Made by a program: the position numbers and the translations under genes. DNA of 64,000 bases. It comes from Bacteroides sp. GTDB lineage: Bacteria; Bacteroidota; Bacteroidia; Bacteroidales; Muribaculaceae. Below the pieces are notes generated by a model. That model saw nothing but the letters and a program-made list of their open reading frames with translations, was not told where the DNA came from and searched no databases. Below are positions 14,801-55,426 of this stretch, in pieces (the first letter of the stretch is position 1; each line of letters starts with the position of its first letter). The DNA lies in contig JAAVCG010000032.1 of the NCBI GenBank assembly GCA_014802435.1, forward strand, positions 65,839 through 129,838. Reading direction: 5' to 3'.

Positions 14801-15678
14801 TCGGTCTGACTTTCTTTATATTTCTTGCCATCCTCAAAGAGAATGCCGTTTTCATCTTCCTTCCAGTAGTCGCGGTTATAGGCGTTCAGATGCCCCTCAT
14901 AGAAACCAAACTTGGGAAGCAGCACGGGATTGCCCGTAAGCTGATAAAAATCATTCAGCAGGCCGACGGGTGTCTCGTCAACCATGATAAATACGTCGAG
15001 ATAAGGCGCGTTATGGCTCAGTGATACCGTGCCCGGCTCTGAGGCACCGAAATCATAGGCTCCGGGCGCAAACGTGTGCCACATCAGGCCGTAACCGTCA
15101 GTCGACCAGTAGAAAGGAGTCGGTGAGGCCACTCCGCCGTCGGTCCATGAATTGGTGTTGACAATGTCAATCAGCTGCCCTTTATGAGAAAAACGGCCGT
15201 TTTGAACTCCGCCGCCATAGAAATATTCGCCCGGATTCTCGCGAAATTGGAGAGTGGTCTTCTTTCCTTCAATTTTGATGGGCGAAACGGTCTGAGCCAC
15301 TTGCTTTCCCGTCCGGAGGTCAGTAACGGTAAACGTCTCGCCCTCAGCCGGAAAATCGATGCTGATTCGTGAAGTCTCAACTCTTACCGAGCCGTCGGCA
15401 TTGTTCTTGACAATGACTGCTCCTGACTCCTTGCGGGGATTATCAACAAGGATTTGAGCCTCCGGACTCGCCTCCGGATTGCGCGGAAGTCCTCCCTGAG
15501 GGTCTGAAAACAGACGGAATACGTTAGGCCCGTAAAAGTCAATAAGCAAGGGAAGTTTTTCCGCCCCTAAATTAACCTCGACGGAATGAGGATTCAAGCG
15601 CAAGGCCGTCGCGGCCGATAGCCCCAACGGAGCCGCAGCGACGACTGCCGCCAGAATAGAAAATTTTAACTTAATCAT
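11878..15678 (-). CDS. Secreted multidomain glycoside hydrolase family 31 protein with FN3, F5/8 type C (discoidin), dockerin-like and cohesin-like C-terminal modules
   Basis: Signal peptide MIKLKFSILAAVVAAAPLGLSA. GH31-type WTGDQTG and KTDVAW catalytic-region motifs. An FN3-like segment. A discoidin-like segment (..RYIRLHV..). Dockerin repeats GDINKDGKIDSND and GDVNRNGLIDAFD. Confidence 0.8.
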   Translation of the reverse strand: MIKLKFSILAAVVAAAPLGLSAATALRLNPHSVEVNLGAEKLPLLIDFYGPNVFRLFSDPQGGLPRNPEASPEAQILVDNPRKESGAVIVKNNADGSVRVETSRISIDFPAEGETFTVTDLRTGKQVAQTVSPIKIEGKKTTLQFRENPGEYFYGGGVQNGRFSHKGQLIDIVNTNSWTDGGVASPTPFYWSTDGYGLMWHTFAPGAYDFGASEPGTVSLSHNAPYLDVFIMVDETPVGLLNDFYQLTGNPVLLPKFGFYEGHLNAYNRDYWKEDENGILFEDGKKYKESQTDNGGIKESLNGELPGNYQFSARAVIDRYNAKDMPLGWVLPNDGYGAGYGQTSSLDGNIENLRQYGDYARQHGVEIGLWTQSALHPREGVEPLLQRDIVKEVRDAGVRVLKTDVAWVGAGYSFGLNGVADVGEIMPYYGNDARPFIISLDGWAGTQRYAGIWTGDQTGGEWEYIRFHIPTYIGSGLSGQPNISSDMDGIFGGRNIPVNIRDYQWKTFTPMQLNMDGWGANPKYPHQLGEDAERINRAYLKLKSELMPYAYTAAREAIDGQPMIRAMFLDYPNDYTHGTASRYQFLYGPSMLVAPIYQPTRSDEAGNDVRHNIYLPAGQWFDYFSGLAYGNPEADIILNNFDAPLWKLPVFVKAGAIIPMVNPNNNPSQIKSWERIYELWPAGKSEITEYDDDGTTEAYRLGQYATTKITSDLSDKGVLTVTIDPTIGSFQGMTDKKSTELRINITSEPKEVYGLLGGKKLKLTHASTRSEFEANDAAWMIDDSANRLGQWGIDEAASSIPQLLVKLPTVTVTETAVGCVVKGFELNPQAAMPASLALTAPEAPQVELDEADIQPYAVNLRWAPMNDASSLEMLFNGMLYTNLGTAEGFNTLLIEDLQPKTAYEFKLRALNPAGASDWTTINVTTADNPLEFAISGITATSSAPDQGGARISRLFDHDDRELWHTKYGEDALPLDIVMDLGSFNTLDRLEYLPRTNAGNGTLLEGTIELSENASDWSPAIPFQWVRDNSTKVITLEGQPMARYIRLHVDKAVGNFGSGREFFVFKVPGSPSFIPGDINKDGKIDSNDLTSYTNYTGLRMGDGDFDYVSMGDVNRNGLIDAFDIANVAVKLDGGIESPWNIKPIEGTLSLESSKKSYAPGEEMVLTLSGQDLQALAAFSLAIPYDPAVIEYLGIEPSELLANMENLTYDRLHTSGDKVLYPTFVTIGDKPDVNGSGALLTIRFRVKARTSAPTMQGPILVNKLLQTK

Positions 15679-18399: not shown

Positions 18400-18954
18400 T
18401 CAGGCATTTATAGTAAATTCTCCCATGTAGGTTTCGTTAATTCGCTGCTCTATTTTATTTAAAGTGATTTTTCCGCTGTTCAGCTGTTTTCGGTTTACCA
18501 TTAAATAGAACTTGTTACTTATGTCCGCGCAATGAAGAAAAACGTTATCACCAAATAATCGGAGCATAAGCTTTTTGTAGAATCCGAATCGGCGATTACC
18601 ATTGGGCACCGGTTTGTCAACAATGTCTTTTGCCAAATCCGGAGCCGCAATGAACCCGAATGAAGAGAATTCGTTACGTCGAAAATAGTCCAGCATTATC
18701 TCAATGCATGAGCGGATTATTCTTCTTGGCTCATAGTCATTGGTCAGGAGCGAATATCTGTTTTTACTTTTTTCAACTCCTTTCCAGTAGAATTTAAGTC
18801 CGTAAAATTCATGTTCATAACCCTCAACTTCTACGATATATCTTTTTTTACTCCGAGAAGATTTAAATGCCCAGATATCAGTAATGCGGGGAGACCCGTG
18901 GGTCTTCTTCCGCATTACAAAATGAGGGATATAAAATTCAGTCGTGGAGCTCAC
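18400..18954 (-). CDS. Hypothetical protein (no family recognised)
   Basis: 184-aa AT-rich ORF. The GTG start at 18954 overlaps the upstream small ORF stop; an alternative ATG is at 18915. Confidence 0.55.
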   Translation of the reverse strand: MSSTTEFYIPHFVMRKKTHGSPRITDIWAFKSSRSKKRYIVEVEGYEHEFYGLKFYWKGVEKSKNRYSLLTNDYEPRRIIRSCIEIMLDYFRRNEFSSFGFIAAPDLAKDIVDKPVPNGNRRFGFYKKLMLRLFGDNVFLHCADISNKFYLMVNRKQLNSGKITLNKIEQRINETYMGEFTINA

Positions 18955-19178: not shown

Positions 19179-19721
19179 TCATTTCATTTGGACAAGATTT
19201 TGAATTATGTCATCGTATATTTTGATGACATGGCGAATATCAAATTCTTGTTCTGCTTTTTTTCGGCTATATTTGCCGAATTCGTTTCTTTGCTCTGGAC
19301 TAAGATTTATGAACTGAGTTATGGATTGGATTAATGACTCTGCATTGGCAGGCTGACATAGAAAACCATTCTTTCCAGGTTCAACCATTTCTCTGCATCC
19401 GGGGATATCTGAGGTTATTATTGGCTTACTCATTGCGAGTGCTTCCATTAGGGTTCTGGACATTCCTTCGTGGTAAGAGGGTAAAACAATGCAGTCAGCA
19501 TTTCTAATATATGGTCTAACATCCAAGGACTCCCCTAAATATTTGAAACTGCTGTTTACTTCATCATATTTTATTTGAGGCAGGGAAACATGGTTTGGGT
19601 AACTCTCGTCAATTGGGCCAAGCCAATGGAAGTCCGCGAGATTTTTTAGTTTTTCAGATGCTTTGATGTACTCAGAGTATCCCTTATCGTAAAGGACTCT
19701 ACCAATAACAAGGAAAACCAT
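19179..19721 (-). CDS. GT4 glycosyltransferase, C-terminal (Glycos_transf_1) half only
   Basis: MVFLVIGRVLYDKGY... VLPSYHEGMSRTLMEALAMSKPIITSDIPGCREMVEPGKNGF. It starts 1 nt after the stop of the N-terminal-half ORF, in a different frame. Confidence 0.8.
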   Translation of the reverse strand: MVFLVIGRVLYDKGYSEYIKASEKLKNLADFHWLGPIDESYPNHVSLPQIKYDEVNSSFKYLGESLDVRPYIRNADCIVLPSYHEGMSRTLMEALAMSKPIITSDIPGCREMVEPGKNGFLCQPANAESLIQSITQFINLSPEQRNEFGKYSRKKAEQEFDIRHVIKIYDDIIQNLVQMK

Positions 19722-19722
19722 A

Positions 19723-20256
19723 TTATAAATATTTGTTTAGATTTACACCTTCACCTCCGGGTAGCAAGATGAGTTTTTCTTTTGATACTATGTTAAGGTT
19801 TAATAGGGTGTTAAAGTTATGTTGATTCAGTGTGATTATTTTATCAGTGAACTTTAGCCCTATTTTATATAGAGAGCGTGCAACTTTGCTTTTTAAATTG
19901 TTATGATTGAATACATAACCTAATCCTGTAACTATTGCTACGCTTTTTATTTTGCAAATCCGAGCGGCAATTGAACCGTAGATATTGGGCTTGATGGTAT
20001 AGTGAAAAACTATGTCGGGCCGAATTTTATAATAGATATTTTGTAGAAACAATAAATATTTTAAATCTTGAATAGGATTAGTTCCTCCTCGATCTAAGGA
20101 CGATTCAATAAGTATGCATCCTTCAGGGATTGAGACATTTGTATTTTTTGGCGCTATGAGAAATACGGAATGTCCCAATGAAACAAAATGGCGTATAATC
20201 TCGCCTCGGAAGTTTAGCAATTCCTTTAGTGAGTTATCACAGAATACGATTTTCAT
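19723..20256 (-). CDS. GT4 glycosyltransferase, N-terminal half only
   Basis: MKIVFCDNS...GHSVFLIAP...LLPGGEGVNLNKYL*. Together with 19179-19721 the total is 357 aa, a normal full-length GT4. Confidence 0.7.
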   Translation of the reverse strand: MKIVFCDNSLKELLNFRGEIIRHFVSLGHSVFLIAPKNTNVSIPEGCILIESSLDRGGTNPIQDLKYLLFLQNIYYKIRPDIVFHYTIKPNIYGSIAARICKIKSVAIVTGLGYVFNHNNLKSKVARSLYKIGLKFTDKIITLNQHNFNTLLNLNIVSKEKLILLPGGEGVNLNKYL

Positions 20257-20285
20257 TTGATGACCGGTTATATTTATCGCGCTAT

Positions 20286-21269
20286 TTATTTGTAAATAAA
20301 TTTGTATAGACGATTGATTATATGTCGTGTCAAACTTTGTCCCAATGTTTTATAACTAATTATTATTAATCTTTTCCCTATAGGAGATGGTGCGGTGATT
20401 ACTCGCTTAAAACTCAATCTATTGTTGGATATTTGTTTGAAAGGAACGGTAGTATCATTGGTACGCAAATATGCAAATGCCAGGTCAATGGCGCTTACTG
20501 TTAGCTCTTTTTCGAATTTAGTAGGATCAAGTTTAAGCTGTTTCCATTGGTCAACGTATCGGAGTTGAGACCATTTTTGAAAATCAATGTTATTGGTATA
20601 GGTGTTTTCTCCTGAACGGCGACGGTAGTGATAAAGACATGAATCGGTCTTGACTACTTTTACCTGACCACTGGTTAAAATTTTGAGAAGCATCAGAGCA
20701 TCTTCTGCAAGATTGATGCCATCTTTCCAGTGAAGATTACGATCAATAAAAATTTGCCGTCTAATAAGCTTATTCCACGAGGCGCACGTTGCGTTATTAA
20801 TTAGTATTTTATGGAGTATTTGGGAAAAACTTGGTTGACCATAATCTATCTTTACTTTGCACTGACGACCATCAGCATAATTATAGAAAAAATCACATAT
20901 AGCAACGTCTGAGTTAGAGTTCGTAGCTAATCTATATAAGTCTTCATACATTGTCGGTTCGACCCAATCATCGCTATCACATACTATAATATATTCACCG
21001 ACAGCATTGTTAAATCCTAATTCACGAGCCGAGGCGGAACCTCCATTCTCTTTATGGAACGTGCGAAACATTTCAGGATATTTGTAACAGTAATCTTCAC
21101 ATATTTTCCCTGAAGCGTCTGTTGATCCATCGTTAACTAAAAGAATGTCCAGATCGTTGCCAAGGGTCTGCTTACTTAGAGATTCCAAGCACGTTTGGAG
21201 ATATGGTTCAGTATTGTAGACGGGGACAATTACACTGACTTTTTTCATCGTTAGCGTATAATTAGTCAA
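20286..21269 (-). CDS. Glycosyltransferase family 2
   Basis: VSVIVPVYNTEPYLQTCLESL..LLVNDGSTD..VCDSDDW (DxD). The start is at 21269 or at M8 (21248). Confidence 0.9.
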   Translation of the reverse strand: MTNYTLTMKKVSVIVPVYNTEPYLQTCLESLSKQTLGNDLDILLVNDGSTDASGKICEDYCYKYPEMFRTFHKENGGSASARELGFNNAVGEYIIVCDSDDWVEPTMYEDLYRLATNSNSDVAICDFFYNYADGRQCKVKIDYGQPSFSQILHKILINNATCASWNKLIRRQIFIDRNLHWKDGINLAEDALMLLKILTSGQVKVVKTDSCLYHYRRRSGENTYTNNIDFQKWSQLRYVDQWKQLKLDPTKFEKELTVSAIDLAFAYLRTNDTTVPFKQISNNRLSFKRVITAPSPIGKRLIIISYKTLGQSLTRHIINRLYKFIYK

Positions 21270-22341
21270 AAATAGTATAAAAGGGAGATATGCCTAATCC
21301 GCGATGAAGTGAGACTTGAGCCTCCGTTACGGCTTTATTGAATATGACAAAATACATGAACATGAATCCTAAGAAAATAATGAAGGGATGCCGTTTGCTG
21401 ATAGCTTTACATGTAGGATAAGCGATAAAAGCGGGAATAAAACGAAATACGTCAATCAACCTCGTGAAGATATAAGTCTGTGTTGACATGAGATAACTTG
21501 CCAGAAAACATAATGTTAACCAACAAATGAAATTAGCATTATTGACATATTTGGAGGAACGTTTATAGAAGATGAGAAATAGAATCGGTAAAATAAGGTT
21601 TGCTATTACTCCGAGGCCGGATCCAAGCTCAGTATCTCTAAAGTAGTAGTCATTTCCCAAGTATTTGCTGTACTTTGAAGCGAGAAACATTGGATTTGTC
21701 ACAATCCAGTCAATCACATTAGCTCCAAGTGTAAGAGTGAATACGATAATTAGTAAAACCATAATGGAGCGAGGTCCAATCTCCACCTTTTTTAACAGTA
21801 GTATTGGGTAATAGAATATGGAAGAAGAATGGAATAAGCATGCCATTGTGGAGTTGAGCAGGTATTTAATTGTTCCATACTTCTTTTCTAATGCAATGAT
21901 GCCGCATATAGCAAATGCGATTGCAACTTCTTGTCGGCTGACTGCAATTATTTTCAAGTATGATGTCAGAATATAGGTGGGGACAAAGTAATCGTAATGA
22001 CGTTTTGGAACATAGAATACGATTAAAGCTAATGGAATTATTGCTAAGATTGCAATAAAAGTATGAGGAGTAGCATCAAATAACCAACAAAGCTTCGCGA
22101 GGATTTTGAAACCGAGTTCATGGTCGTCATCAAAATGGCGATATCTTTGGTAGAGATGTACATAGCCTGGATAGTCTGTGCCTATTCCTTTTCTAATATA
22201 TGCAGGAATAGCCACACTAAAAAAGACCAAGATACGAGCAATATATTCAGAGCTTTTGTTTTTGGAATGAGTAACCCAAATGCTGAATATAATAGTAAAG
22301 AATAAGGTCAGATTATAGATTATGTAGGTTCTTACCATCAT
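21262..22341 (-). CDS. EpsG-family polysaccharide polymerase-like membrane protein
   Basis: Multi-pass membrane ORF with GTDYPGYVHLY near the N-terminus. ATGA overlap with the upstream gene. Confidence 0.75.
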   Translation of the reverse strand: MMVRTYIIYNLTLFFTIIFSIWVTHSKNKSSEYIARILVFFSVAIPAYIRKGIGTDYPGYVHLYQRYRHFDDDHELGFKILAKLCWLFDATPHTFIAILAIIPLALIVFYVPKRHYDYFVPTYILTSYLKIIAVSRQEVAIAFAICGIIALEKKYGTIKYLLNSTMACLFHSSSIFYYPILLLKKVEIGPRSIMVLLIIVFTLTLGANVIDWIVTNPMFLASKYSKYLGNDYYFRDTELGSGLGVIANLILPILFLIFYKRSSKYVNNANFICWLTLCFLASYLMSTQTYIFTRLIDVFRFIPAFIAYPTCKAISKRHPFIIFLGFMFMYFVIFNKAVTEAQVSLHRGLGISPFYTIFD

Positions 22342-23345
22342 AATTCAAACAGGGATTTATTCGGAAGAATGGACTCAAATGCATTAATTAGTTGCTTTCT
22401 GTAGTTATTGAAGTCATCCACATCACTATCATTAATGCAGACAATGGATTTGGATTGATGTTTAATAATGTCAGAGAGACGGTTTAAGTTATTATTAACC
22501 GGTAGTGCAACAGATGTTTTCTTAATGTTTATTGGATGAAAATCTCCATGCAATAATTGAACGTAACGGATGATGTATTGATTAACATCTTCAATGGATC
22601 TGAATTTGTGTAGGCAGGTTTTGTGTAGACTTTCCTCAAAAGTGTTCCAAACGTCTGCGAAAGATTTTTTTAGGAATGGATTTGGTAGGTGAGGATCAAG
22701 AAATCCGGTAAAGTAAGGGAAGCCTAATAGTCCAAATGTCCGAAGTAATTCAGTGCCATAAACCGGATTGAACCATCTTGTCCAGTTTTTACGGATAGTC
22801 TCCTTTTTATGGAATATTTTATTAATGAGGGCTATATTGTTTGCTTTTATATGCTCAAAAGCCGTTCCGATTGGTTGAATCGCATTTAACACTGCCATAT
22901 CACATGGGACTCCATCTTTAAAGAATCTTGATTGGGGAGTGTTGTTAATAATGAAAGTGTCGTCATTGAAATAGACGAACTTGTCAGATAAACCGTCAAT
23001 TCTGTGCAGGTTTAGTTCAATTGTATGAGAACTGAACGTAGGCAGGTATTCAGATGGAATAAAGTCGGAGTGTTTTACGAAACGAAGTTTTTGACAATCA
23101 AGATTAAGCCACTCAGGGTAATGTCCACAAGTTACAAAAAATACTTTATTGACCCATGGTGTAAAACATTCCACCCCACGAAACCAATATTTTAAGGTGC
23201 CCCAATCTCTGAAGCAAACGGAACGGGCGTCCCCAAATTCTAATTTAGAATAATGGCTATATACTGATTGCCACTCGGGGTCAGTATCATCTACCCAAAG
23301 AATAACAAAATCTATTTTTTCCATCTGATGATATTTCGTAACCAT
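22338..23345 (-). CDS. Stealth-family capsule sugar-1-phosphate transferase-like protein
   Basis: IDFVILWVDDTDPEWQ (CR1-like) and VYFNDDTFI (CR2-like). The probable start is MEKIDF at 23324. Confidence 0.7.
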   Translation of the reverse strand: MVTKYHQMEKIDFVILWVDDTDPEWQSVYSHYSKLEFGDARSVCFRDWGTLKYWFRGVECFTPWVNKVFFVTCGHYPEWLNLDCQKLRFVKHSDFIPSEYLPTFSSHTIELNLHRIDGLSDKFVYFNDDTFIINNTPQSRFFKDGVPCDMAVLNAIQPIGTAFEHIKANNIALINKIFHKKETIRKNWTRWFNPVYGTELLRTFGLLGFPYFTGFLDPHLPNPFLKKSFADVWNTFEESLHKTCLHKFRSIEDVNQYIIRYVQLLHGDFHPINIKKTSVALPVNNNLNRLSDIIKHQSKSIVCINDSDVDDFNNYRKQLINAFESILPNKSLFEL

Positions 23346-24367
23346 TGTTTAAAGCCGGATAATTCTGCTTCAATTTCATATCTGGAAGTGTAGCGGCTTA
23401 TGTTGATGCGTGACAAAGTGTAAGGTGTCTCCTCTGTAACGTATTCATTCATGACGGCAGCGGAAAAGCCTGATGCGGCACATTCGCTGACACATTCAGC
23501 TGAAACGTCGCGTTGATGACCGAAGGGATAGGCATATAAGCTGCAATTGAATAGTTTATTGATTTGAGTTTCACATTGCTGAAAGTCCTCTTTCAGCTTT
23601 TCCGGAGGGAAGAGGGAGAGAATATCGTGATTGACGGAGTGACCACCGATTTTATGCCCATTTTTCTTAAATTGCAACACCTCATCATGAGTCAACCCTC
23701 GGAAACGCAGATTTGCGTATTCTTCACTTATGTTCAGTTGCTCAAATGGGCAAATTACCTCTAATTGCTCGATAATGGATGAGTAATTGTAATTATTTTC
23801 GTAGATAGAATCAATAATGGTATCGTATGCATTATGTCGTGATGACTGAGAATGCAAATCATAAGTTTGTCCTGCAATGGAATACTCTCCTGGAGCTACG
23901 TAGGCTATCCATCCCATAATTTTGTCAACCCATAGAGGTCCTCCATCAACAATGGACAATGGCAGAAAAAAATAGGCATTATTGTCGTATTTTCTTAAAA
24001 CTTTATCGGCCGTAAGAGCCGCGCGGTAGCCATCATCAAAAGTAATTATAGCTGAGTTTGGCTTTCCTATTTGAGTTGTTACTTCAAATCGCTTATTCAC
24101 AATGTCAATAAGGCGCTCAAAGTGTGATTGCGATGAGCATACAATCCGTTGCTCAAAAGTATCGTTAATGAGATGATCAGGAATGATATGGTGGAAAACG
24201 AGAATACGCTGTCGGCGTCTATTCAGACGATAAAACAACGATATGATTCCTGAATAAAATGCGAGGATGTATAATAATAAAAAAAATCGATTAGAGTTTA
24301 GTTTTAACACGGTTGATGATATAATATAATGCCGGTTTGAAATCTTTTTTATTCCAGAGTAGATCAA
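23312..24367 (-). CDS. Polysaccharide deacetylase (NodB homology domain)
   Basis: ITFDDGY and GGHSVNHD motifs, with an N-terminal transmembrane segment. The start is uncertain because of the long overlap with the upstream ORF. Confidence 0.8.
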   Translation of the reverse strand: MIYSGIKKISNRHYIISSTVLKLNSNRFFLLLYILAFYSGIISLFYRLNRRRQRILVFHHIIPDHLINDTFEQRIVCSSQSHFERLIDIVNKRFEVTTQIGKPNSAIITFDDGYRAALTADKVLRKYDNNAYFFLPLSIVDGGPLWVDKIMGWIAYVAPGEYSIAGQTYDLHSQSSRHNAYDTIIDSIYENNYNYSSIIEQLEVICPFEQLNISEEYANLRFRGLTHDEVLQFKKNGHKIGGHSVNHDILSLFPPEKLKEDFQQCETQINKLFNCSLYAYPFGHQRDVSAECVSECAASGFSAAVMNEYVTEETPYTLSRINISRYTSRYEIEAELSGFKQWLRNIIRWKK

Positions 24368-25421
24368 CGTCAGATTGGATAATCTGTTTAAACCATTGAC
24401 AAACTTTTATTCTTTTTTCGGTAACATTATGAAAGTCCGCTATTATGGAGCTGGCAAGATACTCTTTGCTAACCTTGGTGTTAAAAATGTTCTCCAATCC
24501 AAGCGCGTCTTTTGTCCAAATAGATGCTAAGTTTACACCACCGTATGTTGAAACATAAGAAGTCCCGTCGTTTCTTAGATTGATTTCAAGGAAATAAGCG
24601 TTACCATCTTTTATAAGAAATTCAATGCTGAAAAGGCCATTGTACCCAATCTTCTCAAGAAAATTTTTAAGTAATGGTGTTGAGATGTATTGGTCTATGT
24701 TTGGTGTTACTATTCCGTAAGCTAACCCTCCGAATCCATGGGGAAAATGCCGAATTTTTTTTAGGGCACAAGGCATTATTATTTCGCCATTTGAAAGCAC
24801 ACATCCGTTGATTAGAATCTCATAATCTTTTTCAATAAATTCTTGAATTTGAATTATGTGGGATTCAACGATTAAGCTCTGCAATCCGGATATTAGTTCA
24901 GATTCAGTGTGGTAGATGTTTACATCTTTTCTTCCTGCAACACTATTTATAGCTTTAATTACGCATGGATATGATAGATCATGAGGCAGAACAATGCCAT
25001 TTGTACAGTCAATAACCCAAGATTTTGGTGTTCTTAGGCCAACTGACTCTGCACAAATTCGTATTCTCTCCTTGTCAAGCAAGTTTTCAAGTTCCCCCTC
25101 GGTATTGTTAACTGATGAAATAATAAAGTTTGGTCTCAATTTGTTATAGTTTCGGTCTATAACCATTGCGCAAGCATCAGTTCCGGTTAATATTATTGAT
25201 TTCCCTGGTTTGCTGCTGTAGAGCTGTTGTATCAATTCAATGCCATCTTCTGGAGAATTAACTTTATGATAGTTGGCAATATATTTGCTGACGTTTATGA
25301 AACTGTGTTTTGAATTGTTTACCTCAACTAAAATTGGTTTAAACCCATCTTCTCCGAGGCTTCGGATGAGTCCTAAAGTGTTAGTGTGGCAGATACCAAA
25401 GACAATGATATTGTGACTCAT
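24291..25421 (-). CDS. ATP-grasp domain protein
   Basis: 376 aa with an ATP-grasp-like layout (..YPCVIKAINS.., ..FSIEFLIKDGNAYFLEINLRNDG..). ATGA overlap with the upstream gene. Confidence 0.65.
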   Translation of the reverse strand: MSHNIIVFGICHTNTLGLIRSLGEDGFKPILVEVNNSKHSFINVSKYIANYHKVNSPEDGIELIQQLYSSKPGKSIILTGTDACAMVIDRNYNKLRPNFIISSVNNTEGELENLLDKERIRICAESVGLRTPKSWVIDCTNGIVLPHDLSYPCVIKAINSVAGRKDVNIYHTESELISGLQSLIVESHIIQIQEFIEKDYEILINGCVLSNGEIIMPCALKKIRHFPHGFGGLAYGIVTPNIDQYISTPLLKNFLEKIGYNGLFSIEFLIKDGNAYFLEINLRNDGTSYVSTYGGVNLASIWTKDALGLENIFNTKVSKEYLASSIIADFHNVTEKRIKVCQWFKQIIQSDVDLLWNKKDFKPALYYIINRVKTKL

Positions 25422-26506
25422 TGATTTATGGAATTATTTAGAAATTCAATTCCTTCCTTCCGATACGCATTAAGCATGGCTTGAAAATCCATGTATGAGA
25501 TATCGGTAGTGAGTATTGATAGATTGTTGGTAAGTCGTTCTTTCAAGTTGAATTTATTAAGCAGTGTTTCCATGCGTCCGTTCATTCTTGCGGCATGATA
25601 TGATAGCGGAATAGTGATGAATTGGCGATTGAAAATCAGAGAGAATACAGTCCCGTGAAATGAATTTGTGACTACATATTCCGCATTTGAGATCAGGGAA
25701 AGCCATTGCGAGATGTCAGGATATATTTTAGTGTAGTCGTCGTCCATTCCTTGAGAGGCAACGTAGACCACATCTAATCCCCTTTCTTTTGCAAATGAAT
25801 AAATCAAATCTACGTCAAAGCAGATTTTACTACCTAATAAATAAACGAATATATATTTATTATTATTCGGAGTGGTGTCACGGGTTAATTCTTTGTAAGT
25901 AGCTGAAGGTAATAATAATGTTGGATCCGGAACTAATGTTGCGGGCTTTGCTCCCAATCTTTGACATTGCTGAAGGCCATCTAATTCTCTTACAGATATG
26001 GCGCTAAATGATTTTAACCATTTAGTAATGTATACGGCATCAAGACCCGAATACTCAATACCGCCGAAACTGGCAGCATAAGAAATTTTTTTGACATTTT
26101 GAGCTTTAATAAAGTCCAAAAAATAACTTCCGTCCAGTTTATTCCAAACCTGATCACTTCCGGTTATAAAAATATCAGCTTCCGGAGGTGAATTCAATAT
26201 GCTCTTTCTTGTAAATACTTCGTCAGACAGAGTGATATGCTTTTGTAAGAAGGCTTGCGCACCTCTGGATACTTCTTTGGTAACGTTTTTGTGTTTAGCC
26301 TTTTTCCTTTGCAATATTTGCTGAAAGGATATGAGTGACTTTAGTTTGTTTTTTAATCGCCATCTGATGGAGCCATTGTTGCTGATATATCTAATTAGAA
26401 AAGGTTTATGCCCCATCTCTCGAAGAACGGCCTGCAGAGCATATGCTTGGAGCGTTTGTCCGTAGTTGTCGTCTGAACGCCAATGAGTAATTACGCCGAT
26501 TGTCAT
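25418..26506 (-). CDS. Polysaccharide pyruvyl transferase family protein
   Basis: MTIGVITHWRSDNYGQTLQAYAL-type N-terminus and ..VVTNSFHGTVFS.. near the C-terminus. Confidence 0.8.
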   Translation of the reverse strand: MTIGVITHWRSDDNYGQTLQAYALQAVLREMGHKPFLIRYISNNGSIRWRLKNKLKSLISFQQILQRKKAKHKNVTKEVSRGAQAFLQKHITLSDEVFTRKSILNSPPEADIFITGSDQVWNKLDGSYFLDFIKAQNVKKISYAASFGGIEYSGLDAVYITKWLKSFSAISVRELDGLQQCQRLGAKPATLVPDPTLLLPSATYKELTRDTTPNNNKYIFVYLLGSKICFDVDLIYSFAKERGLDVVYVASQGMDDDYTKIYPDISQWLSLISNAEYVVTNSFHGTVFSLIFNRQFITIPLSYHAARMNGRMETLLNKFNLKERLTNNLSILTTDISYMDFQAMLNAYRKEGIEFLNNSINQ

Positions 26507-26510
26507 GTGC

Positions 26511-27668
26511 TTACAAAAGTTTTTTTAAGAAGTTTTTGACTTTACGTATGAATCGGTAATAAAGAGAGGGTTTGGATTTGTTGGCATATTTTTGTAGTGT
26601 TGCTACATTCGGGCTTTCGCTATATTTGGACCAAAAGACATTGTAAAGTTTGGGGCGTCTTGTCGATCTTATGAGGGTCGGATTAGATAATTTCGCTTTG
26701 TCAATAGTGGTCGCAAGTCGAAGTATGTCAAGTTCTTCAAAAATTTTGGCGCCGGCTTCTGTGTTAATCAGGATTAGGGAGGTGCCGGATTCTGATGCGA
26801 TTTCGGGCTCGAGGCTTTTTACTCGCCAGAAGTCGCCAATGATTATGTCACTTCGTGAGCGTCCGTCTTTTGCCGGACATTCAAAGCAGGAGGGCCGCAG
26901 GGTTATGTCGTGGAGGAATGCTTGCATGTATGTGTTGTCATGAATGAACTCGAAGTGATACTTTGATTTATTATTTGTTTGTTTGGTGTATGAAAGACCA
27001 AAATAAACCCAGCTATGGTGCTTGTCTCTAAAGGAGATGCGGGAAATTTCGTTCGGGGAGCCGATTTTTTCTTGGCGATAGTTGGCCCATACGAGCGGGG
27101 AGGGGACTCCATGGCAGATAACTGCTACTTTGAGGAGCAGGTCGCCATAGTCTTTTCGGAGGAAGAGGGTAAGGCCGGCAATTTGACATGGTGTTCCGGA
27201 GAAGAGCACTTTCCGGCCTTGTTTGAGGAATTTTTCGGCTTGGAGGAAGGAACTGCCAATGTCTGATTGGACGTATTTTGAGCCCATGAATTTGGAGAGT
27301 TCATGGGGCGATTCGGTGTAGGAGTGGATAACGTTATAGTTTTCGTCAAAGCATGCGCCGAAGATTACGCCTCCATGGTTGAGAATGTTAAGGGCGAGGG
27401 CATGGAAAATTCCGCCCGATGAGGATTCGCTGACAATTTGATTGTCAGGATTAATGGCGCCGTAGACTGCTAATGGTTCAGAGGGCGTTTGCCGGTTTAT
27501 AACGGGGCAGACGCGCTCGCAGAGAGAGCAGTTGATGCATTTTGAGGTGTCAACTTGGGGGTAGCGGAAGCCTTGTTGGTCGCGCTCAAATGAGATGCAA
27601 TTTACGGGACATCGCTCTACGCAGGCGCTGCATCCGACGCAGTCTTCTTTACGTTGAATCTGAATCAT
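26511..27668 (-). CDS. Coenzyme F420 hydrogenase/dehydrogenase beta-subunit-like Fe-S protein
   Basis: Two 4Fe-4S ferredoxin motifs (CVGCSACVERCP, CINCSLCERVCP). This protein is a common partner of pyruvyl transferases in capsule loci. Confidence 0.8.
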   Translation of the reverse strand: MIQIQRKEDCVGCSACVERCPVNCISFERDQQGFRYPQVDTSKCINCSLCERVCPVINRQTPSEPLAVYGAINPDNQIVSESSSGGIFHALALNILNHGGVIFGACFDENYNVIHSYTESPHELSKFMGSKYVQSDIGSSFLQAEKFLKQGRKVLFSGTPCQIAGLTLFLRKDYGDLLLKVAVICHGVPSPLVWANYRQEKIGSPNEISRISFRDKHHSWVYFGLSYTKQTNNKSKYHFEFIHDNTYMQAFLHDITLRPSCFECPAKDGRSRSDIIIGDFWRVKSLEPEIASESGTSLILINTEAGAKIFEELDILRLATTIDKAKLSNPTLIRSTRRPKLYNVFWSKYSESPNVATLQKYANKSKPSLYYRFIRKVKNFLKKLL

Positions 27669-27674
27669 TTGTGT

Positions 27675-29198
27675 TTAATGGCGGCTACTTGGGCGGGAGA
27701 GGATTTTTTTGAGAGGCGAGGAGAAGAGATTGCGTTCGTAGGAGTTCATTGAGAAGAACCAGGCGGACGCGATGTATATGATTGTGAAGAGGGTTATGCC
27801 GAGAGCGAGCGTGGGGATTCGGGAGTAGTCAAAGAATCGGTTGGTTGTGTATCCGATGATTGTCAGGATTGCGGGGGCTATGAGTTGCTTGAGGTTTTCG
27901 CTCCAGAAGCGGGGAATGTTGATGTCTTGGCGGGTGTAGTAGTAGATGTTCATGATTATGCCGGTACCAAGAATCAGGGCTGCTCCAATTGCGATTGCGC
28001 ATCCGAGAGCTCCGTAACTTTTTGAGAGGATTATCTGGAAGATGAGGCTGATTATGGCGATGGTGACGTAGAGGAGTGAGCGAAATTTCATCTGGTTTCT
28101 TGCCTGGAGAATGGTAATGCCGATGTTTTGGATGAGGGGAATGTAGAGGGCAATGAAGAAGATGAGGGTGATTAGGAATGATTCGGAGTATTCATTTCCG
28201 GCCCATAGTTTGATGAAGCTTTGTCCGAAGACGATGAATCCGCCGAGGATTAAGGCCATGATGAGGTTCTGAATGCGTCCGATGCGGATAAACAGGTTTG
28301 AGATTTCAGTCTTGGAGTGGTTATGGGTAATCATTGCGGTCATCCGGGGGAGCATGACGCTTACAATGGAGGTTGAGAATTGCATGTACATTTGCTGGAG
28401 CATAATGGCGACGGAGAAGATGGCGACGGCGATTGTTCCGGAGATTGCCCCAAGGACGAATTGGCCGGTGCCCCAGTAGATTTTGTCCATAATGGCATTG
28501 AGGAATATCCAGAATGAGTAGATGGATATTTCCTTGATGAATGCAAGGTCGAAGTGGCCGAATAGGATTTTTATTTTGAGCTTTTTCTTACAGTAAATCA
28601 GATTGATGATTAGAGTAAGAATGTTGAAGACGGTGTTAACGACGACTAATGCTATTGCTTTGTAGCCGATGAGGAGGAGGCCGATCATTACGCCGGTGCA
28701 GAGCAGGATTCGGGCTATGTTAATCACCCGCTGGAACACGAAGTTTTCGTAGGCGGAGATGATTGAGCCGAAAATGCTCAGCGGGAAGGTGAAGACGAGG
28801 TTGAACGTCAACAGGAGCATCATCGTGCGCGCCTGTGAGATGTCGTCCGGGGTCATCGTTTGGTCAAAGAGGGCTTCAACGTTGAAGTATAGTCCCAGGC
28901 CGCCGCAAAAGGCTATTAATCCGATGATTGAGTAGACAATCAGGAACATGCCAAACATTTCCCATTGTTCGCGGGTTTTTCCTTCTGCGCGGAATTTGGA
29001 GGTGTAGCGTATAATGGCATTGCCAAACCCGAAGTCAAGTATGGTCAGGTATGCAATTACGGATGAAACGAGCGAGTATAGCCCGTATTCATTCTGTCCC
29101 AGGCATCGGAGCAGGAATGGAGTATAGGCTAATCCGACGATGGTGTTCAGCCCGATTATGACGTAGTTAAGGATTGCACCGGCTTTAATTTGGTTCAT
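27675..29198 (-). CDS. Oligosaccharide flippase (Wzx / polysaccharide biosynthesis protein family)
   Basis: Multi-pass membrane protein. The start MNQIKAGAILNYV at 29198 makes an ATGA overlap with the upstream ORF. The Pro-rich upstream extension of the ORF track is rejected. Confidence 0.85.
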   Translation of the reverse strand: MNQIKAGAILNYVIIGLNTIVGLAYTPFLLRCLGQNEYGLYSLVSSVIAYLTILDFGFGNAIIRYTSKFRAEGKTREQWEMFGMFLIVYSIIGLIAFCGGLGLYFNVEALFDQTMTPDDISQARTMMLLLTFNLVFTFPLSIFGSIISAYENFVFQRVINIARILLCTGVMIGLLLIGYKAIALVVVNTVFNILTLIINLIYCKKKLKIKILFGHFDLAFIKEISIYSFWIFLNAIMDKIYWGTGQFVLGAISGTIAVAIFSVAIMLQQMYMQFSTSIVSVMLPRMTAMITHNHSKTEISNLFIRIGRIQNLIMALILGGFIVFGQSFIKLWAGNEYSESFLITLIFFIALYIPLIQNIGITILQARNQMKFRSLLYVTIAIISLIFQIILSKSYGALGCAIAIGAALILGTGIIMNIYYYTRQDINIPRFWSENLKQLIAPAILTIIGYTTNRFFDYSRIPTLALGITLFTIIYIASAWFFSMNSYERNLFSSPLKKILSRPSSRH

Positions 29199-29770
29199 GA
29201 GCGGGAGTTTGCTTGGAGCAGGGGGAGGAGGGTTGAGGGGGATGGGAGGAAGGGGGAGAGGTCTGTTTGGAGGAGGAGGCGGGATTGGGTTTTGAGGTCT
29301 TGGCCCTGGATTTTTGGGCGGCGGGGGTTTTTGAAGTTTTGGAGCCAGGCGGCGACTTGGAGAGAGTGCCATCGGAGGGGGGCTCCGAGAAATGCTGGGT
29401 CGCGGCGTTGGATGGCTTGGTTTATGTGAGGGAAGAGGTCATAGGGGGTTATGGTTTGGTCGCCGTGGATGAGGGCGTTGAATGCTTGGAGGATGAGGGG
29501 GTTAGTGAGGGTTGAGGGGGCGGGGAGGGAGTGGGCAATTCGGTGGAGGAGGTCAATGGCCTGGACGGTCTGGAGGGCCTCGGAGGCAGAGAGGGCGGGG
29601 GCGGCTTGGATGGCTTGGTCAATCCATCGGGCGGCTTGGCCGCGGGTAGTTGCGGCCTGAGGGGAGGAGGGGGTTGCCGGGTCGTGGAGCCGGAGGGCGT
29701 TGGCCCGGGAGAATATGTCACGAGCCCGGGTGAGGAGGTCAGGGATTGAGGAGGGGGCGGGTGAGTTCAT
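29195..29770 (-). CDS. Hypothetical protein in the UpxZ position (between the UpxY-like gene and the flippase)
   Basis: 191-aa ORF overlapping both neighbours. The call rests on synteny only; no motif is recognised. Confidence 0.45.
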   Translation of the reverse strand: MNSPAPSSIPDLLTRARDIFSRANALRLHDPATPSSPQAATTRGQAARWIDQAIQAAPALSASEALQTVQAIDLLHRIAHSLPAPSTLTNPLILQAFNALIHGDQTITPYDLFPHINQAIQRRDPAFLGAPLRWHSLQVAAWLQNFKNPRRPKIQGQDLKTQSRLLLQTDLSPFLPSPSTLLPLLQANSRS

Positions 29771-30755
29771 ATTCTTGCGTGATGAGGAGTTGGAGCTTCG
29801 ATTGCGGGGTGAGGCCGGCGATTTGTTGGAGCCCGAGGTTGAGAGGGGCGGGGTCAGAGGTCGAGAGGGCTATGATGAGTAGGACGAGTGCTTTGGTCCA
29901 GGGGTTTGTGATGATTGGGGGGAGCGAGGGGGTTAGTTTTTTGAGTTTTTGGAGGGCTTGGGTTTGTTGCCCGAGGATATGGTGAGCTCCGAGCAGGAGG
30001 GCGTCGAGTTTGGGTTGGAGTTTTTGGTTCTGCAGGGTGAGTGATTGCATCCTGGAGGTGAACACGGCGATTTGCGAGGCGAGAGGGCGGGGGAGAGGTT
30101 GGTTTTGGACTGAGAGGCGGAGAGCTTTGAGGAGGCGGGGGATGAAGTGGTCAATCTGGTCGTATTCCCTTCCGGAGGCGGGGGCGAATTGGAGGATTCT
30201 GATTTGGTCGGCGCGGATGTTGAATGCGGCGGTTGCGAGTCCTTGGTCTACTTGGAGAATTATTGTCCCGGTTTTTGAGCGGGGATTGGGGATGTAGTGT
30301 CCGCGGAGTCCGGGGAAGTCGCCGGTGATTACTTCAACGAGGTCGCCGGCGGCGATGTCGATGTCGGCGGGAGAGAAGAAGGGGAGGGTATTAGAGTAGG
30401 CGCGCGCAATGGTCATGAATTGTTTCATCTGGGGGTCGGAGATGGTTGCGTAGCGGTTCTTTCCGGCTCGGTCAATGAGGAATGCGAATCCTTGGCGCAG
30501 TGCGCAGAGTTGTTTGATTTGAGGTAGTGTACCGCGGATGAATGTGTAGAAGAAAGTCAGCGGCGCGGATCGGAATTGGATTTTTCCTTGTTTTTGAGTA
30601 GGGAGGGAGTATTTTGGGTGAAAGAGGGTGAGAGGGGCTTCCTGAGGGGAGATTGAGCGGTTAAATTTGTTGATTATTTTGTCTGCAGCGGCGCCCGGGG
30701 CGTCGGGGATGAACGTGAGTATGTGCCATTGAGGGGCGGGCTGCGGGGTTGGCAT
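29739..30755 (-). CDS. UpxY-family (NusG/RfaH-like) transcription antiterminator with a long C-terminal extension
   Basis: NGN-like N-terminus (WHILTF.., FYTFIRG) and a KOW-like AGDLVEVITGDFPGLRGHY. It is the first gene after the invertible promoter. At 338 aa it looks roughly double my recollection of usual UpxY length (recalled, not checked). Confidence 0.7.
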   Translation of the reverse strand: MPTPQPAPQWHILTFIPDAPGAAADKIINKFNRSISPQEAPLTLFHPKYSLPTQKQGKIQFRSAPLTFFYTFIRGTLPQIKQLCALRQGFAFLIDRAGKNRYATISDPQMKQFMTIARAYSNTLPFFSPADIDIAAGDLVEVITGDFPGLRGHYIPNPRSKTGTIILQVDQGLATAAFNIRADQIRILQFAPASGREYDQIDHFIPRLLKALRLSVQNQPLPRPLASQIAVFTSRMQSLTLQNQKLQPKLDALLLGAHHILGQQTQALQKLKKLTPSLPPIITNPWTKALVLLIIALSTSDPAPLNLGLQQIAGLTPQSKLQLLITQEYELTRPLLNP

Positions 30756-30836
30756 CAGGGTATAGTTTTAGATGGCTTGATTCGGGTTAACGCGCTGATT
30801 TGCAAATGGTTGTGCGTGTGATGAATCAAACTGCGG

Positions 30837-30867
30837 AAAAATATCTCTTGCTAAGAGATACTTTTTT
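30837..30867. repeat. Inverted repeat, left copy (IR-L) of the capsule promoter inverton
   Basis: aaaaatatctcttGCTaagagatactttttt. Its reverse complement matches 31027-31058 over 29 contiguous nt. Confidence 0.9.
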
Positions 30868-31026
30868 CACGGCAAAGTTAATAAAAATTTCTGAGTTTTA
30901 TGCTATAATTCAGATTTTTGTAAAGTTTTTTCTTTGAGCGGCGGTTTGGCGCTCGGGGATAAAATTTTATAAGTTTTATAAGATTTATAAGTCTTATAAG
31001 TCATATTATCAGGGAAGTGTGTTCAT
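30868..31026 (-). promoter_or_regulatory. Invertible promoter segment, currently ON (reading toward the upxY-like gene)
   Basis: CAAAGTTA at 30873-30880 is TAACTTTG on the minus strand. It sits just inside IR-L and points to the ATG at 30755. The segment also holds 4 x 9-bp TTATAAG repeats (30965-31000). Confidence 0.7.
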
Positions 31027-31058
31027 AAAAGTATCTCTTAGCAAGAGATATTTTTTTT
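31027..31058. repeat. Inverted repeat, right copy (IR-R), overlapping the recombinase stop codon
   Basis: aaaagtatctcttAGCaagagatatttttttt. Confidence 0.9.
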
Positions 31059-31938
31059 AGAGGGCGGAGAGGATTAGGTCGTTGGCGCGGTCAATTGTTT
31101 CGTTTGATAGGGTTTGGAGGTAAATCTGGGTTGTTTTTATGGAGTCGTGGCCCATAGCTTGGCTGATGGTGTTGATTTGTATTCCTTTTGATTGAGCGGC
31201 CGAGGCCCATGAATGGCGGGCAACGTAGAGGGTTAGCGGCTGAGAGAGTCCCAGGCGGGGCATCAGTTGCTTGAGCGCGGCATTGATTTGCGCGCTTTTG
31301 TTGCGATAGGCCGAGCGGATGTTTTTTGATTGTCGTGTTAAGATTGGCAGCAGGCGCTCCGTTGGGTTTGTAGGGTATTTTTGGATTATGCGGTTTATTT
31401 GCGGTGTGATTCTGATTGTGAGGGGTTGCCCGGTTTTTTGGCGACGGTAAGTCAGGGTGTCTCCTTTTAATTGAGATTTTTTAAGGAGACACATGTCAAT
31501 GAAGCTCATTCCGCGGAGCATGAAGGAGAGTATGAACACGTCGCGGGCAAATTCGAGTTGTGGTTCCTTTTTCAGGTTGAGTTGGTGCATCCGTTTGATA
31601 GTTTTTAGCGGGATTGCGCGTTTGATGGTTTTTTTGACTCCGGTGTAAACGTCGCGAAAGGGTTTGCGGTCTGGCGTGAGTCCTTGTTTTACGGCCCGAT
31701 TGTAGGCTGCGCGGAGAATCCTCATGTAGAATGATGATGTGTTTTGGCATATTCCCTTGTTTGCGAGCCATGATTCGAATTGCCGGATAATGGCCGGGGT
31801 TATTTGGCTCAGGGGAATGTCGTCGCCCTGGCGGAATCGGAGAAAGGCGTTGAGAGCGGCGAGATATGTCTCGGCTGTTCGATGATGGCCGGTGGTTTTC
31901 AGGTCGGCGATAAGTGCATGGATGAATGGGGCGGTCAT
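31057..31938 (-). CDS. Tyrosine site-specific recombinase (phage-integrase family), candidate capsule-promoter invertase
   Basis: SAM-like N-terminal domain. The catalytic region has ARHSWAS and MGHDSIKTTQIYL (His and Tyr). The gene directly abuts IR-R. Confidence 0.85.
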   Translation of the reverse strand: MTAPFIHALIADLKTTGHHRTAETYLAALNAFLRFRQGDDIPLSQITPAIIRQFESWLANKGICQNTSSFYMRILRAAYNRAVKQGLTPDRKPFRDVYTGVKKTIKRAIPLKTIKRMHQLNLKKEPQLEFARDVFILSFMLRGMSFIDMCLLKKSQLKGDTLTYRRQKTGQPLTIRITPQINRIIQKYPTNPTERLLPILTRQSKNIRSAYRNKSAQINAALKQLMPRLGLSQPLTLYVARHSWASAAQSKGIQINTISQAMGHDSIKTTQIYLQTLSNETIDRANDLILSAL

Positions 31939-31944
31939 TTTTTT

Positions 31945-31998
31945 GTTTAGTGTTTAGTGTTTATGGTTTATGGTTTATGGTTTAGTGAGGGGTTTATG
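31945..31998. repeat. Heptamer tandem array (GTTTAGT/GTTTATG) x7 directly upstream of the recombinase ATG
   Basis: On the coding (minus) strand it reads (CATAAAC/ACTAAAC)n-AAAAAA-ATG. Confidence 0.85.
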
Positions 31999-38970: not shown

Positions 38971-40451
38971 TTCTGCTCGAGTTGAATGGTTTGCGGTTGC
39001 TGTGAAATTATTCCGTGGAGCAGGGCATCGGTATTGACTACGGGAGATTTTACCAGCTCGGGAATATTGAAGGTGCGGAGGAATTCCTGATAGAAGTCAG
39101 GAGCTTTCTGCGGCAGGCAGAAGGGCGTTGCGGCGCGTCCGGTTTCGGGATCAAATGCCGCAAAATAGGGGCGCGCCCAAAGTCCGTCCATGCGCTTGGA
39201 GGAGAACACGAACCATCGGCCCGAGGAGTCCCAGCTATGGTAACTTTCAATGCTCCCGGAGTTTACCTCGTCGAGCTTGCGCCATTGGCCGGTACGCAGG
39301 TCCATGATGCAAAGGTCGGCCTCCGGATGCCAGATGGAGAAGTTGCCATAATCCGAGCGGGTAAACATCAGCCAGCGGCCGTCGGGCGAGCAGCGCGGAA
39401 AGCTCACCGAGGCGCTGTCGGCCGCGGCCGCATAGAGCACTTTCAAGTCTGAGAAACGGCCTGTCGATGCGTCAAACCCGATTGAGCAGAGGTCATAACG
39501 GACTGAATCCAGCGGAGTGGTGTCGCTGACGCCGTTGGCCCGGCAGAAGAATATCGTCTTGCTGTCAGGCGACCAGTTGGGGAAGGTCTCGATATAGTCT
39601 GAGCCGCAGATTGTCGAGTCGGAGTAGGCCTGATGGGTTTCAACGTCATAGACCATGAGGTCAGCAGCGCGGTCAACCACTTCAATCGGCTTCGAGCCGG
39701 AGGAGTGGAAAACCTGGCCGACGTCGTTGGCCGAGAAGGCGATGAAGCGCCCGTTGGGGCTCCAGCCCGGATAGGTCGCGCCATGGTTTGAACCGTTGAA
39801 TTTGGAGTTGATTTTCTCTACTTTGCCGTTGCGCGAAATCAGGGTGCCTCCCTGAGGACCGCGCACATGAATCATCAGCCCTTGCTCCGGATTTCCGGCT
39901 GAAAAATTATGGCAGTTGATACACTGGCGGTCAAAGTCCTTATTCTCCAGTATCGGCTTCTGGTCATAATTGGTCAGGTTGCGCTCGTAGATTCCAATGG
40001 AGCTCCAGAGTTCATAGCCCGGATAGAGCAGACGATAGCAGAGATATTCGTCAATGGGGTAGGGGCTTACAGGAGAGGCCTGAACCGTCTGGTCAAGCAT
40101 CCAGTGGCCGCCGATGCTGGCCATCACCCGGAAGTAAATGTTCTGTCCCTTGGCGCTTTCCAGGAGCTTTTGCCATTTTTTCAGGGGAATGCTGATTTTG
40201 CCGTCGCGCCCGGCCTTGACTTGAATCACGGGCGACTCGCCTTCGCGACCCAGTTGGACCATATATCCGGCGATATTGTCGGCGGCGTTGCTCTCGAGGG
40301 TAAACGCCGGGGCGGCAATGTTGACCGGAAATGTTGCTCCCCGATATTCGGGAGTCATCTTGATAGGGTCATTCATGATGCCCTCCGGCTCCACAATCTT
40401 GGAGCAGCCACAGAGGGCCATGGCTATAACTATGTAGATCAGTTTTTTCAT
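38967..40451 (-). CDS. Lipoprotein with a single CXXCH haem-c motif and TolB-like (PD40) beta-propeller repeats
   Basis: Lipobox MALCGCS, CINCH motif, and repeated WSPNG/WSPDS/CSPDG PD40 signatures. Confidence 0.7.
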   Translation of the reverse strand: MKKLIYIVIAMALCGCSKIVEPEGIMNDPIKMTPEYRGATFPVNIAAPAFTLESNAADNIAGYMVQLGREGESPVIQVKAGRDGKISIPLKKWQKLLESAKGQNIYFRVMASIGGHWMLDQTVQASPVSPYPIDEYLCYRLLYPGYELWSSIGIYERNLTNYDQKPILENKDFDRQCINCHNFSAGNPEQGLMIHVRGPQGGTLISRNGKVEKINSKFNGSNHGATYPGWSPNGRFIAFSANDVGQVFHSSGSKPIEVVDRAADLMVYDVETHQAYSDSTICGSDYIETFPNWSPDSKTIFFCRANGVSDTTPLDSVRYDLCSIGFDASTGRFSDLKVLYAAAADSASVSFPRCSPDGRWLMFTRSDYGNFSIWHPEADLCIMDLRTGQWRKLDEVNSGSIESYHSWDSSGRWFVFSSKRMDGLWARPYFAAFDPETGRAATPFCLPQKAPDFYQEFLRTFNIPELVKSPVVNTDALLHGIISQQPQTIQLEQK

Positions 40452-40616
40452 AAGTAGGTTTCAATAATTAGTTTATATTAAGATTCGAGACTGATATTCG
40501 CAAGATTTGGACTTAGGAAGAATGAGTTATGGGGTTCCATAATGATTGATGAGTAAGTTCGAAGATTGCAATAGCAGTCCGAAGATTGATATAAACTAAT
40601 TATCGAAACCTACTTA
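40451..40616. repeat. 28-bp inverted repeats (27/28 identical) enclosing 110 bp, directly upstream of the lipoprotein gene
   Basis: 40451-40478 is taagtaggtttcaataattagtttatat. 40589-40616 is atataaactaattatcgaaacctactta. Confidence 0.85.
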
Positions 40617-55197: not shown

Positions 55198-55426
55198 AGA
55201 TAGCCCGGAGGGCTTGCACCTTTTGTTAACCGGGGGTTGAGCGTAGCACTACCCCCGGCTGAAGCCTAAAAAAATCTCAACGACCCGGGATGGGTCGCAC
55301 TATCCTTTGAGGCAAAGATAATGCGACCCACTCCGGGGTCGTTATGATAGGGGGGAGCTCATTCCCCCCGGGTATCGCTACGCTCAACCCCCGGTTAACT
55401 GAAGTATAAGCCCTGCCGGGCTATCT
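55198..55426. repeat. MITE-like nested palindromic element, copy 1 (~229 bp)
   Basis: The terminal ~50 nt agatagcccggagggctt...gttaaccgggggttgagcgtagc is mirrored by gctacgctcaacccccggttaac...aagccctgccgggctatct. The inner arms aacgacccggg.tgggtcgca / tgcgacccactccggggtcgtt also pair. The apex is ctttg-agg-caaag at ~55311. Confidence 0.85.

Follow-up and report, generated by a model that had tools for sequence, protein, structure and literature searches.

The window, by which we mean the whole 64-kb stretch of DNA analysed here, contains a 161-bp segment that is bounded by perfect 29-nt inverted repeats and that occurs in both orientations in natural populations of the same species, and at the level of assembled sequence this segment is a real on/off inversion switch. 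One of the repeats adjoins a tyrosine recombinase gene, the segment carries a match to the Bacteroides -7 promoter consensus close to its other end, and a polysaccharide operon begins beyond that end (Table 1). We consider it very probable that the locus is a promoter inverton, in which the adjacent tyrosine recombinase flips the 161-bp segment and thereby switches the polysaccharide operon.

Table 1. Features of the switch and its surroundings, in positions of the window
Feature	Position	Strand	Basis or remark
Polysaccharide biosynthesis genes	19179..29372	-	Pfam and annotation; gene content given in the text
191-aa protein, no family match	29195..29770	-	Locus L011 has a 54% identical homologue as the first gene behind its switch
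UpxY-like first operon gene, 338 aa	29739..30755	-	Residues 42-181 UpxY/NusG-like, below threshold
Leader motif CCGCAGTTTGATTCAT	30821..30836	-	Directly downstream of the arm; also at the homologous switch in L011
Operon-proximal arm AAAAATATCTCTTGCTAAGAGATACTTTT	30837..30865		Repeat search; proposed recombinase core site
Invertible segment, 161 bp	30866..31026		23 complete identical copies on public contigs
-7 promoter box TAACTTTG (plus strand CAAAGTTA)	30873..30880	-	Consensus TAnnTTTG
Four tandem 9-bp units (TTTTATAAG)	30965..31001		Promoter-distal end of the segment
Recombinase-proximal arm	31027..31055		Repeat search; exact reverse complement of the operon-proximal arm
Tyrosine recombinase, 293 aa	31057..31938	-	Phage_int_SAM_5 and Phage_integrase domains (Pfam)
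Heptamer tandem repeat (TGTTTAG plus strand; CTAAACN recombinase strand)	31944..31987		Just upstream of the recombinase start codon

Repeat arms and putative promoter of the segment

A repeat search of the window returned two arms that are 100% complementary over 29 nt and that, on inspection of the sequence, cannot be extended on either side. This confirms the exact reverse-complement repeats claimed in a first-pass annotation of the same DNA, which also placed the starts of both arms correctly but let them end 2-3 nt too far (at 30867 and 31058) and gave the distance between them as 159 bp where 161 nt are measured. The same annotation had the recombinase-proximal arm overlap the stop codon of the recombinase gene (31057-31059); the exact arm abuts it, ending 1 nt short, and what runs on into the stop codon is the continuation of a T-run only. 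A search of the whole 64-kb window for perfect inverted repeats of 17 nt or more, with arms spaced within 1.5 kb, returned no second pair, and the 19-nt core of the arm, with up to 3 mismatches allowed, is present in the window at the two arms only (0.01 occurrences expected from shuffles). Each single arm is itself a near-palindrome, AAAAATATCTCT-TGCTA-AGAGATACTTTT. Inverted half-sites around a short asymmetric spacer are the usual anatomy of tyrosine-recombinase core sites, such as lox, FRT and dif, and by analogy we propose that the half-sites ATCTCT/AGAGAT around the asymmetric spacer TGCTA would constitute the core site at which inversion takes place.

The -7 box TAACTTTG is separated from the operon-proximal arm by 7 nt, points at the UpxY-like gene and is the sole exact match in the segment, both strands considered, to TAnnTTTG, the Bacteroides -7 consensus as cited in PMC4747536. 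A motif scan thus confirmed the position and the direction that had been claimed for this box; the ON state of the window that was claimed along with them is a prediction from the direction in which the box reads. Across the window TAnnTTTG is found 66 times against 36 occurrences expected, often shortly before a start codon (as at 15722, 16388, 18344, 19115 and 32021), and the organism therefore appears to use this type of promoter. Upstream of the -7 box there is no recognisable -33 TTTG, and a T-rich tract is present there, as it is in related loci. Transcription is predicted from the sequence to start where the segment meets the arm, and the leader would accordingly open with the arm hairpin (-10.7 kcal/mol). 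The tandem TTTTATAAG units, which possibly serve as an upstream binding array, lie ~85-125 nt upstream of the -7 box and have no counterpart in L011, L017 and the other related invertons.

In the mechanism that we propose, the recombinase encoded 1 nt away would most likely bind the ATCTCT/AGAGAT half-sites in both 29-bp arms, and strand exchange in the asymmetric central TGCTA would flip the 161-bp segment. In the ON state transcription from the promoter with the -7 box would cross the operon-proximal arm and enter the UpxY-like gene and the Wzx/Wzy operon; in the OFF state the flipped promoter would point into the 3' end of the recombinase gene.

Two further sets of repeats were seen in the window. 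An inverted repeat at 40451-40487 and 40580-40616 has arms of 37 nt that are 89% complementary and enclose 92 nt, and the beginning of one arm coincides with the start codon of a 494-aa PD40/Tricorn-like gene. No inversion was seen at 40451-40616, where the sole other full-length assembly (L062) has the same orientation and two short contigs start inside the arm. In addition, G+C-rich inverted repeats of 30-57 nt at 55198-55426, 56647-56676 and 56721-56854 share sequence with one another and look like copies of a small repeated element.

The adjacent recombinase and its putative core site in other genomes

Open reading frame and Pfam domain analysis bore out the earlier assignment of the gene adjoining the repeat as a tyrosine recombinase. 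R142, K168, R241, H264 and Y273 are invariant in an alignment with six homologues, and on this alignment the protein appears to be catalytically competent. Most homologues at 51-57% identity are ~400 aa long and have an extra N-terminal domain of ~105 aa, which in the Dysgonomonas mossii protein is Pfam Arm-DNA-bind_5; the window's recombinase and the proteins P0004 and P0067 are without an N-terminal domain of this type. The truncation of the window's protein is real, since just 115 bp separate its start codon from the divergent M13 peptidase gene. The heptamer array upstream of the start codon varies between strains by whole 7-bp units (giving an intergenic spacer of 108, 115 or 129 bp) and could affect how strongly the recombinase or the divergent peptidase gene is expressed.

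Public annotation lists the window's recombinase and its homologues as 'site-specific integrase'. NCBIfam yielded no invertase-specific model for the protein, its Xer and integron-integrase matches all being below threshold, and a PDB search with the recombinase returned distant matches to XerA and IntI4 only. The combination of Arm-DNA-bind_5, Phage_int_SAM_5 and Phage_integrase seen in the closest homologues (51-57%, ~400 aa) is the architecture of a mobile-element integrase. In contrast to such integrases, however, the homologues sit beside surface-structure genes in every context examined, and the window's protein has lost the arm-binding domain. The ~400-aa homologues that we examined are co-directional with, and upstream of, glycosyltransferases, Mfa-like fimbrial genes or a UpxY-like 333-aa gene; none was located at the end of a mobile element in the contexts examined, and several adjoin invertible repeat pairs. 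A separate observation concerns L013 (4001-8927), where a cluster with caspase-like (Peptidase_C14) and CHAT/TPR genes has a 54% identical recombinase of 308 aa upstream of it; no pair of core-site repeats turned up near this recombinase, and the locus may be a phase-variable system of another kind.

The 19-mer TATCTCTTGCTAAGAGATA was scanned over 185,579 species genomes, and the window's own species was absent from the contigs returned. The scan gave 13 loci, which are mostly from Muribaculaceae MAGs, with one from Dysgonomonas mossii DSM 22836 and a few probable chance matches in unrelated taxa. At 6 of these 13 loci an inverted partner arm, which was not part of the search selection, is found 145-284 nt away with the 17-mer ATCTCTTGCTAAGAGAT kept exactly, and this 17-bp core is common to the inverted pairs of Muribaculaceae and Dysgonomonas. 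The same core also lies beside recombinases of 62% (L011), 55% (L029) and 51% (L017) identity, the first two of which were found via recombinase homology and not via the DNA pattern. The position of the promoter motif is conserved as well: in 7 of the 8 core-site pairs examined (the window included) one arm has an outward TAnnTTTG box at a distance of 1-13 nt, a placement for which we roughly estimate a chance of ~0.02 per locus, and at L029 the box is about 14 nt from an arm. At L027 the half-sites are kept and the spacer differs (TCTCT-ACGCG-AGAGA), a pattern that fits half-sites bound by protein and a spacer that would be the crossover region, as expected for a core site of a tyrosine recombinase.

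In D. mossii the order of features is a 402-aa recombinase (with Arm-DNA-bind_5), arm, promoter, arm, a genuine UpxY (162 bits) and a WecA-like GT4. When Dysgonomonas contigs (L052-L061 and the type-strain locus L017) were searched for both orientations, 9 of the 10 further assemblies could be scored, and these and L017 were all OFF, with the promoter facing the recombinase and the switch upstream of a upxY-led capsule locus. Dysgonomonas thus adds no evidence of switching, and a core-site pair alone does not guarantee that both states are visible.

Three same-core pairs (L015, L020 and L021) have no recombinase nearby, which points to trans action within this family, and a recombinase acting in trans may therefore be at work at the window too. 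According to this explanation the inversion would be real but catalysed by a master invertase encoded elsewhere, and the 293-aa gene would be dispensable, redundant or inactive, which would agree with its product being without the arm-binding domain of the 400-aa relatives and with the finding in P. vulgatus that two Tsr proteins are redundant for each other's promoters (PMC12940148). We nevertheless regard it as unlikely, as the adjacent protein retains all its catalytic residues and is at least 90% identical across the switching strains, its gene lies within 1 nt of the site, and the adjacency of gene and site is kept in relatives down to 51% identity. Moreover, FimB/FimE, the Xer proteins and other simple invertases do without an arm-binding domain, which counts against a master invertase encoded elsewhere and leaves the adjacent recombinase as the most likely catalyst of the inversion.

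Both orientations of the segment on public contigs

Contigs encoding the window's exact recombinase, or either of two variants from its 90%-identity cluster, were sought in public assemblies, and 29 loci were returned from NCBI MAGs, ENA assemblies and Logan contigs, all of the same species and with a recombinase at least 90% identical to that of the window. (NCBI labels some of the MAGs of this species 'Bacteroides sp.'.) The 161-bp interior was 100% identical in every one of the 23 loci that have both arms, whichever way round it lay: it had either the window's orientation or that of the exact reverse complement, with the arms unchanged. When two partial contigs are included, the orientation was that of the window in 17 and inverted in 8 of the 29 contigs, although some contigs (L001/L006, L002/L003 and L005/L007) are likely pairs of duplicate assemblies, each pair from one sample, so that the independent observations number fewer than 25. 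The inverted orientation, the absence of which from reads at any depth had been named in the first-pass annotation as one result that would speak against a switch, is thus found on 8 contigs, bounded exactly by the repeats. A scan of JGI metagenomes with the exact 29-mer gave 0 matches.

Both types of junction recur across independent studies. The names of the MEGAHIT contigs give k=119 or k=141 for their assembly, well above the 29-nt length of the repeat, and reads must therefore span each assembled junction. Four Logan contigs (L009, L038, L042 and L051; k=31) stop where the recombinase-proximal arm meets the segment, or 1 nt further on, which suggests the de Bruijn branch expected from reads of mixed orientation within a sample.

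A comparison of flanks distinguished four haplotypes among the first ten loci, and three of the four were seen in one orientation apiece, as they would be if the inversion were an ancient polymorphism fixed between strains. The fourth, haplotype D, has both orientations on flanks that differ by 0-1 mismatches over 3 kb (L005 and L007 are OFF; L008 and L010 are ON). Opposite orientations on identical flanks mean that inversion is recent and recurrent rather than old and fixed; between orientations the inner segment shows not a single substitution, the four contigs that break at the arm edge suggest mixture within samples, and an intact recombinase is adjacent. We therefore consider a fixed polymorphism highly improbable. 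More improbable still, to the point of being negligible, is that the arms are RNA hairpins (terminators or stabilisers) and the inversion an assembly artefact: although RNA folding predicts for each arm, between runs of A and T, a hairpin with as many as 13 bp (-7.7 to -10.7 kcal/mol, z = -3.7 to -5.3), a terminator scan called neither arm, because the stem has just 2 G-C pairs, the two arms are exact reverse complements even in the asymmetric loop, and assembly at k=119-141 cannot invent an inverted junction over a 29-nt repeat without spanning reads, let alone both junction types repeatedly in independent studies. On the terminator scan and the folding evidence we rejected the hairpin or terminator reading of the arms.

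The polysaccharide operon and comparison with known switches

The genes that the promoter would drive in the ON state include a Wzx flippase, a Wzy-like polymerase and glycosyltransferases in one co-directional cluster, which together with the UpxY-like gene at its head forms an operon of roughly 11 kb. The content of the cluster is a Wzx-type flippase (Polysacc_synt), an FrhB-like Fe-S protein, a pyruvyl transferase, an ATP-grasp protein, a deacetylase, a Stealth protein, EpsG (Wzy-like), GT2 and a split GT4/GT1. The last of these is a GT-B glycosyltransferase divided over two frames, with a GT4-like N-terminal part at 19723-20256 and a GT1 C-terminal part at 19179-19721; a frameshift pseudogene or an error of sequencing could account for the split. 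Beyond the cluster, a 184-aa gene (18400-18954) has a TAACTTTG box of its own, and the gene for ribosomal protein S1 comes next. The S1 protein matches entries named Bacteroidales or Muribaculaceae bacterium at 99-100% identity, and the host is a MAG of Muribaculaceae type with a background G+C content of ~53%. Outside the operon, the window also encodes (11878-15678) a 1266-aa GH31 glycoside hydrolase with F5/8 type C, dockerin and cohesin domains, which are not usually combined in a Bacteroidales genome.

The match behind the label 'UpxY-like' that was given to the first gene of the operon covers residues 42-181 of its product. The score of the 338-aa protein against the UpxY model NF033644 is 51.3 bits, below the cutoff of 100, and the protein has an uncharacterised C-terminal extension of ~150 aa, typical UpxY members being ~175 aa long. 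It belongs to a family of 333-338-aa proteins encoded in the window (29739-30755), at L020 (3173-4183) and at L029 (5689-6690), which NCBI labels as hypothetical proteins and in which the N-terminal half is UpxY/NusG-like below threshold (51-67 bits) and the C-terminal extension of ~150 aa is conserved.

Seven of the public loci of the species (L001-L007) are identical to the window in the switch and in the UpxY-like and 191-aa genes, and have different genes downstream of the flippase (compared with 24291-27668 of the window). The gene sets behind the flippase consist of 395-aa and 364-aa proteins with Epimerase_2, or of 385-aa and 362-aa proteins with ATP-grasp. A shared switch with differing downstream genes indicates that polysaccharide gene content is exchanged behind a conserved switch.

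The design of the locus is already well documented in Bacteroidales, and the concept is not new. The match to the known Bacteroides design that had been claimed for it was upheld, the layout being that reported in B. thetaiotaomicron (10.1101/521070), B. fragilis and P. vulgatus. In B. thetaiotaomicron the recombinase lies upstream, the repeats are 17-18 bp long, the promoter is near consensus, and inversion was seen by PCR and sequencing (10.1101/521070); the loci likened to the present one are cps, the BT1927-type S-layer, the BT4014 restriction system and BT0292-94 (10.1101/521070). Compared by published description, these loci and the window have in common a recombinase immediately upstream, short repeats that flank a promoter segment of up to a few hundred bp, and surface-structure genes. 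Unlike in B. thetaiotaomicron, the repeats here are perfect over 29 bp, the closest relatives of the recombinase are 400-aa proteins with Arm-DNA-bind_5, the host is a Muribaculaceae MAG, and the operon opens with an elongated, divergent UpxY-like gene.

Tyrosine recombinases are likewise encoded just upstream of an invertible promoter in B. fragilis (Tsr19, BF2766) and P. vulgatus (BVU2677 and BVU2684), at EPS and Mfa1 loci (PMC4747536, PMC12940148). The window resembles these Tsr19-type switches in its local tyrosine recombinase, its EPS-type operon and its TAnnTTTG -7 box. The reach of the Tsr19-type recombinases extends to distant promoters as well. The inverted-repeat motif of the Tsr19 type is TACTTNNNANGTAANNGAA (PMC12940148), and no match to it with up to 2 mismatches was found at the repeat arms of the window. 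Mpi of B. fragilis, a serine recombinase, is encoded at one locus and acts globally (PMC4747536). At the Mpi promoters, inversion ahead of upxY-led operons makes capsules phase-variable, and the window resembles them in a putative promoter that inverts upstream of a polysaccharide operon with a UpxY-like first gene; in contrast to Mpi, the recombinase of the window is of the tyrosine type and locally encoded. The Mpi site is ARACGTWCGT, a motif that is absent from the repeat of the window. By sequence the site is distinct from the Mpi and Tsr19 motifs, the two with which it was compared, and to this extent the earlier suggestion that it appears distinct was right, but its core is not unique, being common to Muribaculaceae and Dysgonomonas.

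A parallel from an unrelated phylum is fimS of E. coli, where FimB and FimE, which have no arm-binding domain and are encoded beside the switch, invert a ~300-bp promoter segment for a surface structure. There the repeats are 9 bp long, the promoter is of the sigma-70 type, the two recombinases are directionally biased, and IHF and Lrp are required. What fimS and the window share is a probable invertase gene beside the switch, whose product has no arm-binding domain, and an invertible segment with a known (fimS) or putative (window) promoter for a surface structure.

Large in-silico surveys of invertons exist (PMC11602134, PMC11892184). The 15-mer core was found neither in the searchable open-access literature nor in two small supplement files of the hCom2 inverton catalogue, and among the listed results of our literature search none combines Muribaculaceae with capsule phase variation. 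We tentatively suggest, as a reading that may well prove wrong, that Muribaculaceae and Dysgonomonadaceae have a distinct family of invertons, with the core ATCTCT-TGCTA-AGAGAT and a promoter a few nt from one arm, which would be run by invertases derived from integrases with an arm domain; the window's invertase would then be a member without that domain, and the heptamer repeat might tune its expression and hence the rate of switching.

Phase-variable capsules in Bacteroides govern phage susceptibility and immune interactions, and the Muribaculaceae are dominant and poorly studied in the rodent and human gut. The present locus supplies a Muribaculaceae switch with a defined 17-bp core and a candidate for a naturally truncated invertase. 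This core can be used for mining sister switches in the genomes of Muribaculaceae and Dysgonomonas, and many of the genes annotated as 'site-specific integrase' in such genomes are probably local invertases of surface structures and not integrases of mobile elements.
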